Source: a virus
Taxonomy: Duplodnaviria > Caudoviricetes
IMG/VR virus record: IMGVR_UViG_3300046062_000033
Coordinates: 1-46,725 of that record
DNA: 46,725 bases
Reading direction: 5' to 3' (one strand)
Shown here: positions 1 through 46,725 of the stretch, piece after piece
Layout: each line of letters opens with the position of its first letter
Position numbering within the stretch: position 1 is the stretch's first letter
Translations under genes and position numbers: made by a program
Notes under the pieces: model-generated
Told to the model about the DNA's origin: nothing
Databases searched by the model: none
Seen by the model: the letters and a program-made list of their open reading frames with translations, nothing else

Positions 1-98
1 CACCCACTTCCCGCCGCACGAATGCTATGTCGAAGCGTTCGCGGGGGGGGGGGCAGGGGTGCTCTACCACAAACCCCGGTCGAAGGTCGAAGTCTATA
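1..98. repeat. Terminal direct repeat, copy 1 (circularisation overlap)
   Basis: Identical to 46630-46725 except that the G tract is G11 here (43-53) and G9 there (46672-46680). Confidence 0.95.
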
Positions 99-763
99 AC
101 GACATAGCCGGCGGTGTGTGGAACTTTTTCGACGTCTTCGTTCGACGCACCGACGACCTCATCGACCGGCTTGACGACGTGTATCACGCGAAGGCTCAAT
201 ACGACGAATGGACCGACACGATCCCGGACGACGACGTCGAACGGGCCGCCCGGTTCTTCTTTTTCCGGTATGCGAACTGGGGGTCGAAGTTAGACCCCGC
301 CGGCTTCCGGCGTATGACGCACCGAAGCGTCGCCGACAACTTCCGCGACGCCGTCGACGCGCTCCCCGACAAGGCCGACCGCTTACACGGCGTCACGATC
401 GACCGGTTAGATTGGGCCGAATGCGTCGACAAATACGACGGCGACGACACGCTGTTCTATTTCGACCCGCCGTACGTCGCCGCCGGCGACGACCTGTACG
501 CCCACGACGACGACTTCGACCACGGCCGATTCGCCGACCGGCTACACGATATCGACGGCGATTGGGTCGTGTCGCTCGAACGCGTCCCCGACAGCTTCCC
601 TGAATACGACGCCGAAGCCACACGGGACACGAAAGACCGCGTGTCGAACGGACAAGAACCCGACCCGACGGAACGAACCGAACGGCTTTGTATGAGCTTC
701 GACCCCGCCGAACGCGCCCGGTTTACCGCCGCCGACCAAGCGTCGGTCGACGCGTTCAGATAA
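1..763 (+). CDS. Dam-like (D12 class) DNA adenine methyltransferase, main part; the gene starts at 46571 across the junction (~273 aa)
   Basis: YVEAFAGGGAGV SAM-binding motif I, EVYND, and catalytic FYFDPPY. In frame through G11. Ends in PIP-like DQASVDAF. Confidence 0.92.
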   Translation, partial: THFPPHECYVEAFAGGGAGVLYHKPRSKVEVYNDIAGGVWNFFDVFVRRTDDLIDRLDDVYHAKAQYDEWTDTIPDDDVERAARFFFFRYANWGSKLDPAGFRRMTHRSVADNFRDAVDALPDKADRLHGVTIDRLDWAECVDKYDGDDTLFYFDPPYVAAGDDLYAHDDDFDHGRFADRLHDIDGDWVVSLERVPDSFPEYDAEATRDTKDRVSNGQEPDPTERTERLCMSFDPAERARFTAADQASVDAFR

Positions 764-3000: not shown

Positions 3001-3782
3001 GTGACGCCGAAAGAATACCGGGAGCAAGCCGCGCATTCGGCTTGTGTTGATATATATAGCGTGGGGGGGGCGGCCCTTCGCCCCGGTATTATTGGCCGTT
3101 CAAGTTGGAACACGTCGGAACGGCACGGATGGGGACGCGAGAAACGTGCGACGTCTACATGATGGATAGCGGGATACGGAACGACGATATTACGAACGAA
3201 GACGTGTTAGACGCTGCCGAAACGTACGGCGCGGATTACGTTATTCCGAAAGATTATTTGAATGACCAATATAAAACGACGCAAAGCGTACACGAATTTC
3301 TTGACATATATCGATCGCATTCGTGCGACGCGGAGTATCTGATACCATTACAACCGCCGCACGACAGGCACTTCGAAGATTTCAAACAGTACGATACGTT
3401 CGCCTTGGGCGGTATCGCGAAGAAGCCGCCGTCGGCGCAACTCGATTATATACGGAAGTTCCGCGACGTGGCGGGCGACGACGTCTATGTTCACATCCTG
3501 GGGTTGGGGGCAAGCCGGGAATTGATCGACGCCTTTCGAACCGATCCGGGGTTTGTTGACAGTATCGATACGTCGACGCCCGTGAACGCCCCGAAGCATG
3601 GGGAAATACCCGACGCGACGTTCATACAGAACCGACAGAAGTTCCAAATCCCGGCGGGTGATGGGTCGTCGACGGGACACGCGATAGCGTGCGAATTCAT
3701 CTTATGGGAAATGGCACAGATGCTAAACCCGGATTGGTCGTCGGCCGAAGATAAAAACCAATCGGGGTTAACCGACTTCTAA
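3001..3782 (+). CDS. TGT-fold (DpdA-like) guanine transglycosylase, frameshifted at a G8 tract (3063-3070)
   Basis: Motifs MDSG, PKD, IPLQ, ALGG, VHILGLG and DSIDTSTP. The N-terminus (GTG 3001, MTPKEYRE...DIYSV) is in another frame, and the catalytic frame is closed by TAG at 3057-3059. G6 or G9 would fuse the two. Ends in PIP-like NQSGLTDF. Lower GC than the flanks. Confidence 0.8.
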
Positions 3783-4255
3783 TGCCGACGCACGTGATCG
3801 TCGGGTGCGGCAAATCCAAACGGGACGGCCCGACCGAAGCCCGCGACCTATACACCGCGAACTACCGAAAACCGATTAAGAAATACGCCCGTGTCGTCGG
3901 CGACTTCGACTATATCTTTAGCGCCAAGCACGGTATCATTCCCGGCGACCTTGTTATCGAACCGTATGACGTTCGTGCGTCGGACGTCCCCGACGACGTC
4001 TTGCGCGACCGGGTCGACGACACCATCGACGACGGCGGTCCCGGTAATAGGTGGTCGCGTGTCGATCGCGTGGTCGTGTGTGCCGGGATGGATTACGTCG
4101 AACCGACCCGCGACATTTTCGAAGACCGCATCGACGCCGACGCCGACTTCCCGTTTCAGGACGTCGAGGGGATGGTCGGGAACGGGGCACAAGCGGCGTG
4201 GTGTAAGCAACGGGTCGCCGACGTGACGAACGCGGGTGTCGACGAGTATTTGTAG
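3782..4255 (+). CDS. DUF6884/YaaA-like protein
   Basis: IVGCGKSK...ARDLYT...IFSAKHG...IEPYD signature; translationally coupled to the TGT-like gene. Confidence 0.75.
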   Translation: MPTHVIVGCGKSKRDGPTEARDLYTANYRKPIKKYARVVGDFDYIFSAKHGIIPGDLVIEPYDVRASDVPDDVLRDRVDDTIDDGGPGNRWSRVDRVVVCAGMDYVEPTRDIFEDRIDADADFPFQDVEGMVGNGAQAAWCKQRVADVTNAGVDEYL

Positions 4256-4276
4256 TGAACGGCAGGTAGTGTAACA

Positions 4277-4293
4277 CCGACACACTTATTTTT
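4277..4293 (+). promoter_or_regulatory. Viral promoter motif CCGACACACTTAT
   Basis: Same BRE/TATA-like motif as at ~30792, 35718, 41937 and 46533. Confidence 0.6.
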
Positions 4294-4401
4294 CCGGCGG
4301 GCGTAGGTTTCCCCGTCGACGGCACGACGCCGCGACCGGCACGCCGGGCGCCCCCGTGCGTGTCGACTCGAAGCACGCCCCGACCGACCGAACGCGAACC
4401 C

Positions 4402-5190
4402 ATGACCCGACCCACCAATTCGAACGACACGGACGAATCGCTCACACACGTCGACGCCGACGCCCTCACCGACCACGAACTACGGGCCGTACTCCCCGAC
4501 TGCGACGTCGTGGTCGTCGGGTACGACTCGGTGTATTCCCCTGCCGACGTGACGACGACACGCGTCACCGACCCGGAATACGACGCGAACACGGTCCGGC
4601 ACTCCCCAGTCCCGATCACCGGCGTCGACGCCGACGACCCCGAACGCGGGATCGGCTTCGGCACCGACGACGTCCACACGGTGACGACGGGTGCGCGGAT
4701 CGGCACCGTCCGGTTCGTTCGCTACCCGGCCCCGCCACTCGACAAGACCCGGTATACCGTCACGTTCCGCGCGCTCGCCGGGAACTGGACGACGGCGCGG
4801 GACCTCGACGACCTCGACCCGGTGTCGCTCGCCGAATCGACCGCCGACAAGCACGCGTTCGACGACGCGGAACGCCCGCCCGCCGACGACTGCCGCGTCG
4901 TCGATATCGACGTCGGCAAACCGCGCCCGCGTCGTCGGGCGACCGTCGACGTGCCGGTGACGATCGTCGACGTCGACACGGCCGACCGCGACGCCGTCGT
5001 CGAACGCGCCCGCGAACGGCTCGGCTCGACCGGCGGCGACCGACCGGACGTGGCGGTGTACCGCGACGACCTGCCGCCCGTCGGCGACCACCTGATTACC
5101 CGGAACGGGGTCGCCCGCCGCGACACGAACCTGCGGGCGGCGCCCCGGTACCTCATCGAGGACGTCGACGTCGACGCCGAACCGGTCTAA
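4402..5190 (+). CDS. Hypothetical protein
   Basis: Acidic ORF with genome-typical codon use; alternative GTG start at 4360. Confidence 0.65.
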   Translation: MTRPTNSNDTDESLTHVDADALTDHELRAVLPDCDVVVVGYDSVYSPADVTTTRVTDPEYDANTVRHSPVPITGVDADDPERGIGFGTDDVHTVTTGARIGTVRFVRYPAPPLDKTRYTVTFRALAGNWTTARDLDDLDPVSLAESTADKHAFDDAERPPADDCRVVDIDVGKPRPRRRATVDVPVTIVDVDTADRDAVVERARERLGSTGGDRPDVAVYRDDLPPVGDHLITRNGVARRDTNLRAAPRYLIEDVDVDAEPV

Positions 5191-28830: not shown

Positions 28831-29400
28831 TCACTCGGCGATGTTGACGACCGCGATGCCGTCGGGGTCGGTGACGACGATCGGCGACGTCACCGACGGC
28901 GTCCGATCCATCCCGACGAAGACGGTCCGGGTGTCGACGGGGACGCGACCGACGGCCGCAACGTCGACCAACACGATGCAGTTCGACGGAACGGCGTCGA
29001 CCCGTTCGACGAGATACCCGTCGATCGCCGGCAGGAACGGGTCGGCCGCGTCGGCGTTGTCGTACGCGGCGGCGTCGTCGCATCGGTCGGCGGCGGTGTC
29101 GCCGGCGAAGAACGCCGCCCCATCCGGCTGTCCGTCGACTTCGTCGCCGTACAGGTCGGTCTTGGACAGGCCGGTCGACGCGTAGCCGTTCTGCCCGAGC
29201 CGGTGGAGTGCGTCGCGGAGGTGTCGGACGTCGAAGCTGTCGACGAAGGCTTCGGTCGCCGCGCCGTCGATGATGGTGTGCCACATGGCCGACCGCATGG
29301 CCGTCCCGACGTCGTCGTCGAACGACGTGACGAGCGATTCGGCGGGCGGGTCGACGTCGGTCGCGGCCAAGAAGTCGTGGAAGGTGTCGTCACCCGTCAT
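28831..29400 (-). CDS. Hypothetical protein, possibly resembling an HK97/encapsulin A-domain
   Basis: ATG overlaps the TFB stop; IDGYLVERVDAVPSNCIVLVD and DPDGIAVV. Confidence 0.6.
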   Translation of the reverse strand: MTGDDTFHDFLAATDVDPPAESLVTSFDDDVGTAMRSAMWHTIIDGAATEAFVDSFDVRHLRDALHRLGQNGYASTGLSKTDLYGDEVDGQPDGAAFFAGDTAADRCDDAAAYDNADAADPFLPAIDGYLVERVDAVPSNCIVLVDVAAVGRVPVDTRTVFVGMDRTPSVTSPIVVTDPDGIAVVNIAE

Positions 29401-30449
29401 GGGCCGACGCCTTCGGACACTAAGCGGTCGATCAAATAATCGCGGTCGGGTGTCATGCCGACGTCGACGTCGTGGTCGGCGGCGAGTTGTTTCAGGTCGT
29501 TGTAGGCGACGTCGTCGAATCGGGTGCGGTCGCGCCACTCGCGAACGTCGGTCACGCGGTTTACGACGGTCGATTTCGACACGCCGGCCGTGTCCGCGAC
29601 GTCGGTTTGGGAGACGTCGACGCGGGCGTCGGTCGCGGCGACGTAAACGACGCCGGCGGCGACGCCGGTCGGGTCGGTGCCGTCGACGAAGCCGGCGTCG
29701 GCGTCGATCGCGGCGTCGACGACGCCGACGGCGTCGGCCCGTACCCGGGCGGGCAGGCCGTCGATGCGGTCGCATAGGTCGTTCACCGCTGCCGTGATGG
29801 CGTCGGGGTCGCCGGGGGCGACGGCGTCGTCGCGACAGGCAAGGACGTCGCGGTACTGGTTTCGAACTGTCGTGACGACGACGTTCGCAGCGGCGGCGAC
29901 GTCGTCCTGTTCGACGTCGGCGTTCCGGTAGGTCGACGTTGCATAGACGACCGCTGCCGCGAATCCCGAGACGGATTTGCCGACGTGGACGCCGGCGGCG
30001 ACGGCGTCGTGGCACACCGCGACGGCGTCGGTTTCGAACGCGGGGTCGACGTCCAGGTCGTCGCAAATCCGTCGGACCCAGTCGGCCGGGTCTTCGGGTT
30101 CGACGGTGTAGGGAAGCGCCGAAAGTACGCGGTGGTAGATCGACACGACGGCGTCTTCGTCGACGTCGCGGTCGACGGGGTCGACGACGTCGGCGGGCTT
30201 GGTCGGAATGTCGCGAACGCGGGCTGCCGCGTAGACGGCTGCCGGGAACGCCGCTGCCGGGTAGCGTCGGGCGTCGCCGCTGAAGCGGCCGGCGCCGTCG
30301 CGTTCGGGCCCGGCGGCGATCACGCCGGCCTCGACGGCGTGGTCGAAGCACGTGACGGCCATGTCGCCGATCGTGTCGTCGAACCCGGCGTCGCGGGCGA
30401 TCCGCCGGAGGACTGTTGCGTACTCGTCGTCGGTCGCCGGTCGTGGCAT
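29397..30449 (-). CDS. tfb: TFB/TFIIB-like protein with three cyclin repeats and no Zn ribbon
   Basis: AAVYAAAR; GKSVSGFAAAVVY...EQDDVAAAANVVVTTVRNQY; GTDPTGVAAGVVY...SQTDVADTAGVSKSTV. Confidence 0.88.
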   Translation of the reverse strand: MPRPATDDEYATVLRRIARDAGFDDTIGDMAVTCFDHAVEAGVIAAGPERDGAGRFSGDARRYPAAAFPAAVYAAARVRDIPTKPADVVDPVDRDVDEDAVVSIYHRVLSALPYTVEPEDPADWVRRICDDLDVDPAFETDAVAVCHDAVAAGVHVGKSVSGFAAAVVYATSTYRNADVEQDDVAAAANVVVTTVRNQYRDVLACRDDAVAPGDPDAITAAVNDLCDRIDGLPARVRADAVGVVDAAIDADAGFVDGTDPTGVAAGVVYVAATDARVDVSQTDVADTAGVSKSTVVNRVTDVREWRDRTRFDDVAYNDLKQLAADHDVDVGMTPDRDYLIDRLVSEGVGP

Positions 30450-30534
30450 GACGGTCGACGGTAGGCGGACCGGCGGGAAAAGTATGTCGCTACTACACCA
30501 ACACATCGTATCACAAAACGGATAGAAGACACGA

Positions 30535-30553
30535 ACCGGCATTCTATGCCGGT
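30535..30553. promoter_or_regulatory. Perfect 8-bp inverted repeat in the divergent promoter region
   Basis: ACCGGCAT-TCT-ATGCCGGT. Confidence 0.45.
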
Positions 30554-30791
30554 AATTATAACTCTATCGCATACCCGCTCACACGGCGACATACGACGGG
30601 CTCACCGGGGTGAACCCCTCGAATCCATCCTGTTGTCGTGTCGGTGGTATGGGGCGGCCGAGGATTGAGGCGACTGTGACGGCCGTCACGCCGCGTAGAA
30701 CCGACGCTACAGTTACACGAATTTGTCGGTGTTATACTATGGAATGTGATATGACGCGGACGGCGGCGACCCACGCCGTGTAGTGCATCAA

Positions 30792-34226: not shown

Positions 34227-35030
34227 ATGCCAGACTCACACCACGACACGGCGGTCGAAACGATCGTCGACGCCGACCTATGGACTGCCGTTTGCGACGG
34301 CGTCAACGGGATCGCGTCCCGACCCGAAGCGGCGTTCGAATTCGACAACGACGGGCTTCGCGTCCGGGTGCGGGAAGCCGCGAACGTCGCGATGATCGCC
34401 CAAACCGTCCCGGCCGACGCGTTCGACCACTACACGGTCGACGGCGACGTCACGATCGGGCTCAACACCGACACGTTCGCCGACCTCTTGGGCGTCGCCG
34501 ACGGCGACGACCCCGTCGCGTTCGATTTGAACGCCGAAACCCGGAAACTCGAATTCGAATCGCGCGGCGTCGAATACGACCTCGCCGGCATCAACCCGGA
34601 CGCGATGACCGGGACGCCGACCGACGTCCCGGCGGTCGACGACGAGTACGCGTGGACGATCGACGTCGACCTACCGGTCGAGTTGTGGGATCGCGGCACC
34701 GACGTCGCCGACCTTGCCGGGAGCGACACCGGGACGTTCGTCTACGACCCGGACACCGGCGACGTCGTGCTGGAAGGGGCGGGCGATACCGACGCGTCGC
34801 GGGTCGTGCTGTCGGACGCCGACGCGTTCGCGTGGCGGGACGGCCCGCCCGACGACCGCGTCGAATGCGTACAGTCGAACGACTATATGCCGAGCGTGAT
34901 CGACGTGATCGACGAAGACGTCGTGCGCTTCGTCACCGGCACGGAACTCCCGTATCACGTCTTCACCGAGCGGGCCGACGGCCGGATCGACACGAAATTA
35001 CTACAAGCCCCCCGGATCACCAGCGGGTAA
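34227..35030 (+). CDS. pcn: PCNA sliding clamp
   Basis: GLRVRVREAANVAM, AFDHY, IGLN and ETRKL, plus C-terminal LQAPRI, all matching haloarchaeal PCNA. Confidence 0.9.
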   Translation: MPDSHHDTAVETIVDADLWTAVCDGVNGIASRPEAAFEFDNDGLRVRVREAANVAMIAQTVPADAFDHYTVDGDVTIGLNTDTFADLLGVADGDDPVAFDLNAETRKLEFESRGVEYDLAGINPDAMTGTPTDVPAVDDEYAWTIDVDLPVELWDRGTDVADLAGSDTGTFVYDPDTGDVVLEGAGDTDASRVVLSDADAFAWRDGPPDDRVECVQSNDYMPSVIDVIDEDVVRFVTGTELPYHVFTERADGRIDTKLLQAPRITSG

Positions 35031-44930: not shown

Positions 44931-45445
44931 TGCCCTCGACCCACCAATCCGGTCGCGACACCGAGTACCCGACCGACGCCCACCGCATGATCGCCACGAA
45001 AAACGACCTCACGATCGCGGCGCTAATCAGGGGGATTCGGGACCCCGACCGGGCACAGGCGTACATCGACGCGGAAATCGAGGTAGCCGACGCCGACGAC
45101 CGCGACGTCCGAAAGTCCATAATCGGGGCGTGCAACCGACGGAAGATCGCGTTATCGGACGCACACGCCGGCGTGACCGACGCCGGCGCCGACGCGGGCG
45201 ATACTCCGGCCGGCGACGCGGACGACGACACGGCGGCACACGACCGGCCTAACGGCGACGACAGCGACGATGCCGACGACCCGTACCCGGGCGCCCCTCG
45301 GTTCGACTCGAAGCGCGCGCTGTCGACGGCGGTCGCCGGCCACGACCACGCCGGCGTGTTCACCGTCGCAAAACCCGTCGGGACGGTCGCCGGGTGCGTC
45401 GACTGTGACACCTATATCGGCGTCGACCCCCGCGACGACGACTAA
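44930..45445 (+). CDS. Hypothetical protein
   Basis: TAATG overlaps at both ends. Confidence 0.6.
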   Translation: MPSTHQSGRDTEYPTDAHRMIATKNDLTIAALIRGIRDPDRAQAYIDAEIEVADADDRDVRKSIIGACNRRKIALSDAHAGVTDAGADAGDTPAGDADDDTAAHDRPNGDDSDDADDPYPGAPRFDSKRALSTAVAGHDHAGVFTVAKPVGTVAGCVDCDTYIGVDPRDDD

Positions 45446-46512
45446 TGCCGGCGACCACGCCCGACGGGATACCGCTCACGCCCGACGTCCCCGACGCGCT
45501 CGCGACGCCACCCGGCGTCCCCCGCGACACGACGACGTGGATCGGTGACCGCCCGAGCGAATCCGACGGCGACCGTCTACGGTATGCCCTGTTCTCCGGC
45601 GGGGACGATTCGCTATCGATGGTTCACCACGTCATGTCGCGAATGGACGCCGATGCCGTCCTGTACCTGAACACGAACACGGGGCTTGCGGACACCTATC
45701 GATACGTCGTCGACGTCTGCCGCCGGTTCGAGTGGCCCCTCCGCGTCGAACGGTCGCCCGTGTCGCTCGCCGAACTCGGCATGACGTACGGGTTCCCCGG
45801 GTCGGCGTACCACACCGTCGCCTACGCCTACTTGAAGGAACGGCAACTGTCGGCGATCGCGGGCGAATACGACGGCCCGCCGACCTACGTCACGGGCGTT
45901 CGGAAGCACGAATCCGACCGGCGAATGACGACCGTGCCCGACGACCGCCGGTCGACCGGGGAGGGCGGTCGGTGGACGTGGGTGCAACCGATCCGGGGAT
46001 GGACCGACGGCGACGTCGTCGACTACCGCGAGTGCCACGGCTTGCCCCGGAACCCGGTCGCGGCGGCGATGCACCGGTCGGGTGACTGTTACTGTGGGGC
46101 GTTCGCCCACCGCGACGAACTCCTCGTCGACCTCCGGTCGAACGGGTACGACCGCCACGCGACGTGGCTGTTGGCCGTCGAAGCCCGCGTCCAAATCTAT
46201 CGCGGGCGGCTCGCGGTATTCGAACGCCGGTACCCGGACGAATGGGCGGCCGTCGACGACCGTCGCGACGACTGTACCCCGAAGCCGATGCGGCTCTCGG
46301 TCGCCCGCGAGGTGGCCCCCGACGCCGCCGCCGACATTGACGCGATCGGTCGCGACGACGCCCTCGCCGTCGGTCGTGACGACGCACGAAACTATTGGGG
46401 ACACGGCGATATGGCGAACGACGAACTCCGGGCGCTGGTCGCCGAACACGACGTCGGACAGGCCGAATTATGCCAGTTCTGCGACGGCGGCGGTGGTCGC
46501 CCCGACGAGTAG
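45445..46512 (+). CDS. PAPS reductase-family (PP-loop) protein
   Basis: FSGGDDS PP-loop, TGVRKHESDRR, PIRGWT..DV and SGDCYCGAF. Confidence 0.88.
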   Translation: MPATTPDGIPLTPDVPDALATPPGVPRDTTTWIGDRPSESDGDRLRYALFSGGDDSLSMVHHVMSRMDADAVLYLNTNTGLADTYRYVVDVCRRFEWPLRVERSPVSLAELGMTYGFPGSAYHTVAYAYLKERQLSAIAGEYDGPPTYVTGVRKHESDRRMTTVPDDRRSTGEGGRWTWVQPIRGWTDGDVVDYRECHGLPRNPVAAAMHRSGDCYCGAFAHRDELLVDLRSNGYDRHATWLLAVEARVQIYRGRLAVFERRYPDEWAAVDDRRDDCTPKPMRLSVAREVAPDAAADIDAIGRDDALAVGRDDARNYWGHGDMANDELRALVAEHDVGQAELCQFCDGGGGRPDE

Positions 46513-46570
46513 ATATCCCAATAGGTTTCTCACCGACACACTTACGCCAGTTAACGGATACGTTTCGGAC

Positions 46571-46725
46571 ATGGCGAACGGGTTTTTCCCATACCCGGGC
46601 GGCAAAGCCCAATACGCCGAGTGGATATACACCCACTTCCCGCCGCACGAATGCTATGTCGAAGCGTTCGCGGGGGGGGGCAGGGGTGCTCTACCACAAA
46701 CCCCGGTCGAAGGTCGAAGTCTATA
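46571..46725 (+). CDS. 5' end of the Dam-like methyltransferase; this copy has G9 and is out of frame
   Basis: MANGFFPYPGGKAQYAEWI...YVEAFAG (motif X and motif I). With G9 the frame reads ...SL and then meets TA(A) at the window end. Confidence 0.88.
   Translation, partial: MANGFFPYPGGKAQYAEWIYTHFPPHECYVEAFAGGGRGALPQTPVEGRSL
46630..46725. repeat. Terminal direct repeat, copy 2
   Basis: Matches 1-98 minus two Gs. Confidence 0.95.

Follow-up and report, generated by a model that had tools for sequence, protein, structure and literature searches.

The N6-adenine methyltransferase gene of a tailed halovirus carries a G run in its SAM-binding loop that stands in two lengths at the two ends of one contig, and real slippage of this run is the likely source of the difference. 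The window analysed here is the whole of a single-contig record of 46,725 nt. When its two ends were compared directly, positions 1-98 were found to be identical to 46630-46725 apart from two extra G (Table 1). A length difference within the assembly was confirmed in this way, as distinct from two alleles in the virus population. We consider it just probable that the run slips for real but by accident, as a hot spot in a gene that the virus can do without; a role as a selected on/off switch is unlikely.

To place the run in its gene, the reading frame was followed from an ATG at 46571 across the contig junction to a stop at 761-763. The product is a D12-class N6-adenine DNA methyltransferase, because its profile match lay above the cut-off (PF02086, 39.5 bits against a cut-off of 22 in the profile search) and motif I is N-terminal and followed by DPPY. 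The match to phrog_56 had an E value of 5.9e-41, and the family profile also matches the EcoDam, DpnM and T4Dam structures. The length of the protein to its first stop was computed as 272 aa for G8, 51 aa for G9, 54 aa for G10 and 273 aa for G11. The preliminary description had held that the overlap copies differ only by the G run, that the run lies inside the SAM-binding motif, that G9 truncates the protein at about 51 aa and that G8 is the canonical length, and all of this was borne out. The motif I loop was scored in 118 of the 122 homologues compared (four were left unscored), and in 118/118 it has 11 residues, so that G8 is the matched length. The G11 copy would have 12 residues in this loop, so that the earlier view of G11 as the working ON state is not supported, and G8 is present at neither contig end. 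In the five closest proteins (64-75% identical) the motif reads F-G-G-G/A-A/G-G-V. In a single predicted model (mean pLDDT 72.5, from a 19-row alignment that lacked the first 20 residues, and with no control fold), loop residues 16-20 had a pLDDT below 50.

Table 1. Coordinates of the features of the window that are discussed in the text.
Feature	Position	Strand	Remark
Terminal overlap, start copy	1..98	.	42 bases + G11 + 45 bases
Terminal overlap, end copy	46630..46725	.	42 bases + G9 + 45 bases; low-depth stretch of the other assembly
G11 run	43..53	+	in frame; motif I one residue longer than in every homologue examined
G9 run	46672..46680	+	+1 frameshift relative to the homologue-matched G8; sole length in the separate contig set
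D12-class N6-adenine methyltransferase, 5' part, G9 copy	46571..46725	+	out of frame after the run, 51 aa
D12-class N6-adenine methyltransferase, 3' part, G11 copy	1..763	+	open to 761-763; PF02086, phrog_56
Motif I (E-A-F-A-G-G-G-A-G-V)	32..61	+	SAM-binding glycine loop, Dam/DpnII family
Catalytic motif IV, DPPY	464..475	+	intact
PAPS-reductase-like gene	45445-46512	+	directly upstream of the methyltransferase
TFIIB gene	29397-30542	-	
PCNA-like gene	34227-35030	+	
DUF6884 gene	3782-4255	+	
CACCGACAC motif	46531..46539	+	upstream of the methyltransferase gene; repeated before several other genes
CACCGACAC, further copies	768, 4275, 40055, 41935	+	
CACCGACAC, further copy	30638-30646	-	

The two runs are the longest G/C runs of the whole contig, and the methyltransferase run is the G-richest 15-20-mer of the genome. 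By geometric extrapolation about 1.3 G/C runs of at least 8 would be expected by chance, 0.33 of at least 9 and 0.02 of at least 11, so a G8 is unremarkable and a G11 remarkable. With the codon use of this genome, the codon string GCG GGG GGG has a probability of about 0.04. The next-longest G/C run is an intergenic G8 at 3063-3070, at which the contig does not break and which offers a natural control for read mapping.

In order to look at the run from outside the record, the contigs of run X1, a halite metagenome, were used as a separate assembly, although they probably derive from the same reads as the window; X2 and X3 contain small shares and gave no cover at the G run. The X1 comparison covers the end of the window, and G11 is known from the start of the window alone. 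A 167-base X1 piece aligned to 46553-46719 without a gap and hence carries G9. Its depth was 3.66, against 10.1 for the neighbouring X1 contig, which was identical to the window in 2066/2066 bases, and the X1 assembly breaks on both sides of the G run. The depth of the last bin (3.23) is that of the G9 piece by itself; being accounted for in this way, it indicates that no G11 contig was placed there. Since contigs drop rare variants, the missing G11 contig in X1 does not amount to absence of G11. If reads of 150 bases are assumed, the G9 piece corresponds to about 4 reads, possibly from 1-2 molecules.

Two other origins of the contig ends were considered. A noisy long-read contig was ruled out by the codon-frame scan, which gave no clear frameshift, and by the 0 differences in 2066 bases. 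A genuine direct terminal repeat is unlikely, because depth falls there instead of rising and the contig ends interrupt the gene. When proteins of 28-90 aa were searched in the protein collection, no short protein of the OFF state was found.

A comparison of molecule likelihoods was then made with assumed stutter rates and is illustrative. With one G9 and one G11 molecule, a broad real mix came out 2-15 times likelier than the best of the single lengths. When three G9 molecules were assumed, the ratio of real mix to single length ranged from about equal to 4-fold. A true G8 with two expansions was the least likely source under these rates. A real mix is thus modestly favoured over a single length.

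Relatives of the virus gave no sign that the run is kept. L004, the nearest relative at the DNA level (80% nucleotide identity), has motif I as TTC GGC GGC GGT GCC; P0005, P0006, P0007 and P0123 were compared as proteins. G runs at motif I went up to 5 in 226 loci (some of them present in more than one collection), in 120 viral pattern matches and in 30 haloarchaeal loci (30 of 83 matches, from 72/401 genomes), and up to 2-4 in four halovirus isolates. The haloarchaeal scan for a run-bearing motif I returned 6 pattern matches in 5/401 genomes, none of which was motif I. The tract lengths in related genomes, which the preliminary description had wished to see compared, thus gave no run above G5 in any locus that had not been chosen for a run, and the run was not kept in relatives above codon chance. 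A conserved switch found no support here, the relatives being without the run and the methyltransferase gene missing in the fetched DNA of 2/3 syntenic relatives, namely L348, whose terminase is 83% identical, and L353. By this distribution the methyltransferase gene is accessory. Two cluster-mates of P0123 are N-truncated. As separate observations, L004 has two D12 methyltransferase genes in tandem (3001-3816 and 3806-4681) where the window has one, and the proteins P0008 and P0124, both closely related to the methyltransferase, have in common a replaced N-terminus that lacks motif I. Pseudogene decay was also considered and was unsupported, the window protein having 10 private changes where five relatives have 1-21.

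To see whether such runs occur elsewhere, all viral contigs were scanned for YVExF[GA] with a run of at least 7 G behind it. The scan yielded 13 loci, all of D12 type with DPPY about 150 residues on, and at most 75% alike. In 5/13 of these genes (L354, L355, L360, L362 and L366) the frame is lost at the run itself through a single extra G (+1); their runs are G9-G11, and 228-248 clean residues follow downstream. The codon string of L360 is the same as that of the G9 copy of the window. Frameshifts of +1 thus recur at runs of this kind in other viral D12 genes. A search of phage and plasmid records for near-identical copies of L358, L362 and L365 gave no long match above 80%. The number of runs was not raised overall, since about 2700 motifs would be expected to yield about 20 and 13 were seen. 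By type, and with small counts, F-G motifs had 12 runs where about 2 were expected and F-A motifs had 1 where about 13 were expected. Among 120 unselected motifs, 2 looked broken nearby.

As an essential-gene control, runs of at least 7 G were collected at what we take to be the Walker A motif of the terminase. Thirty-seven loci were obtained and 34 were kept, three being dropped (one poly-G contig end, L370, and two non-terminase loci); 14/34 were identified as terminases by profile and the remainder by the motif only. In this set 32/34 were in frame and 2/34 shifted, both by -1. The two shifted genes, L384 and L399, lack one G in the Walker A run, probably through assembly errors. In a Fisher test D12 and terminase genes differed with p 0.012 when any shift was counted and with p 0.0008 when +1 alone was counted. 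When only in-frame lengths of 8-9 were compared, 2/8 against 2/27 were shifted (p 0.22; p 0.047 for +1), and this length-matched contrast is weak; 3/5 of the shifted D12 genes have an in-frame G10, a length absent from the control. That all shifts are +1 is partly a matter of ascertainment, because the search pattern misses most -1 methyltransferase alleles. Among terminase G9 runs 2/9 were shifted, and the collection therefore contains probable errors at G9 length.

Length variation of the same kind is found in the records of Bordetella phages. In bpm, G8 is in frame in BPP-1 and in BbrP_003 (251 aa), and G9 in BIP-1 and G10 in BMP-1 are out of frame; BPP-1, BIP-1 and BMP-1 (AY029185, AY526909, AY526908) have no other difference in the bpm region. 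It is thus already known from the records that the length of a poly-G run can vary in an adenine methyltransferase gene of a phage, and the poly-G tract in the BPP-1 methylase is mentioned in a passage of 10.1101/2025.10.21.683753, citing Liu et al. 2004. With these phages and the 5/13 shifted D12 genes, the slippage at G runs of viral methyltransferases that had been proposed looks real. Like the window gene, bpm is a phage adenine methyltransferase gene that has its G run at motif I or beside it and is in frame with G8. In bpm, however, DPPY comes first, motif I last, and the run right before motif I, close to the 3' end, whereas the window gene is of D12 type and has its run within a motif I that is N-terminal; the bpm variation lies in three near-identical records and that of the window in one thinly covered contig.

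Other loci offer partial likenesses. In the window gene a long mononucleotide run in the 5' coding region sets the frame, as in contingency loci. The agt gene of coliphage T2 is described as a measured contingency locus between TgvAB and McrA/BC in the report by Gomez, Barrick and Waters (10.1101/2025.10.21.683753), where mutant reads averaged 7e-4 without selection. It shares with the window gene a homopolymer frameshift in a phage DNA-modification gene that is read as a restriction hedge, but there the tract is poly-A, the gene a glucosyltransferase gene, and reversion and phenotype were measured, whereas the window gene is known from contigs alone. The receptor-binding genes of Fletchervirus carry poly-G tracts (Sorensen et al. 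2021, as quoted in 10.1101/2025.10.21.683753 and cited in PMC10877375); according to these secondary mentions, tracts of G7-11 vary in phage genes there too, in receptor-binding proteins rather than DNA modification and in a bacterial host. Among haloviruses, HVTV-1 gp89 (AGC34458.1), HCTV-5 gp84 and HCTV-2 gp18 (AGM11792.1) are likewise N6-adenine methyltransferases, of type II/alpha, and are 37-47% identical to P0004, a close relative; the HVTV-1 and HCTV-2 homologues have no recognition sequence assigned (S4 Table). Unlike the window gene, these three have only G3-G4 at motif I. Phase variation in phiCh1 reportedly concerns adhesion proteins. In the literature that was searched, which covers few subscription papers, no archaeal virus with a homopolymer-switched methyltransferase was found. 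The concept itself has phage precedents (T2 agt, Fletchervirus, bpm), and the archaeal host alone would be new.

The window has genes of a tailed halovirus by profile search (terminase, portal, tail tube, TFIIB and PCNA-like). GATC occurs at 5.66 per kb, 1.12 of expectation over the whole window, and this density is below the range of 6.47-11.04 per kb that a passage of PMC8651126 gives for viruses with a phiCh1-like Dam. With a ratio of only 1.12 and the nearest characterised homologues without an assigned target, the Dam/GATC specificity earlier suggested did not find support. CTAG is nearly missing (1 against 29 expected in the whole window), and its scarcity is described for haloarchaea and their viruses in part of PMC6471742. 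GCGC, AGCT and GGCC are mildly under-represented over the whole window. The motif CACCGACAC, which precedes the methyltransferase in L004 as well, has 9 copies against 1.26 expected (0/100 shuffles reach 9), and three intergenic copies continue with ACTTA. It may possibly be a viral promoter element, and the virus encodes its own TFIIB.

In the reading that we hold to be just probable, the G run would arise by chance codon choice in the glycine codons of the SAM-binding loop and slip during replication, leaving part of the population with the out-of-frame G9 gene. Selection would tolerate this drift out of frame because the gene is dispensable. Both lengths would be real molecules, the ancestor presumably had G8, G9 would be the commoner state, and the changes of frame would be neutral; the assembly probably breaks at the run because few molecules cover it. 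The locus would act like a phage contingency locus in its mutability, without sign of selection. A technical origin is rather unlikely by comparison: here one length would be true and the other a slip of library amplification or assembly where the genome is richest in G, brought out by the very few reads from which the contig ends were built. The fall in depth from 10.1 to 3.66, the break of X1 on both sides of the run, the presence of G9 alone in X1 with one contig filling the last bin, and the probable errors at terminase G9 runs all fit such an origin, as does the rise of Illumina indel rates with run length and at long G/C runs (PMC4053816, PMC11140927). On the other hand, PMC4417121 describes short-read slips as mostly one-base deletions, with multi-base insertions the rarest class; the two-base difference would be a rare error, and both window lengths exceed G8. 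The likelihood comparison under assumed stutter rates (2-15 times for one G9 and one G11 molecule) and the otherwise clean contig also argue against it.

Selected phase variation, in which the run would be kept so that progeny toggle adenine methylation and hedge between ordinary and methyl-directed restriction, is unlikely. It draws on the trade-off demonstrated for T2 agt in 10.1101/2025.10.21.683753, on Mrr homologues that are patchy in haloarchaea according to PMC6471742, on the G8/G9/G10 of bpm, on the otherwise intact state of the frameshifted D12 genes and on F-G motifs, in which runs are about 6-fold more frequent than roughly expected. It is opposed by the ceiling of G5 at motif I in the 226 loci, the 120 pattern matches, the 4 isolates and the 30 haloarchaeal loci, by the 6 pattern matches in 401 haloarchaeal genomes (0/6 being motif I), by the lack of the canonical ON length at both contig ends and by the loss of the gene from 2/3 syntenic relatives as fetched. 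The hedge against Mrr-type restriction put forward in the preliminary description is likewise unsupported, given the GATC ratio and the homologues with no assigned target. It is doubtful that selection has made the motif I glycine codons a slippage switch that recurs among the D12 methyltransferases of viruses, with 5/13 run-bearing genes in a clean +1 OFF state and this halovirus as the first archaeal two-state case, toggling adenine methylation against patchy Mrr-type restriction.

If the variation is merely accidental, glycine-rich motifs would give rise to hot spots of slippage by which accessory genes of viruses are inactivated, and the case would also warn against relying much on contig ends that lie at G runs. 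For read-level typing, the 13 viral D12 genes with a run, of which 5 are in a clean +1 state, form a ready list. If the variation were both real and selected, the contingency loci of phages, which include glucosylation and receptor genes, would come to include self-methylation in an archaeal virus as well.
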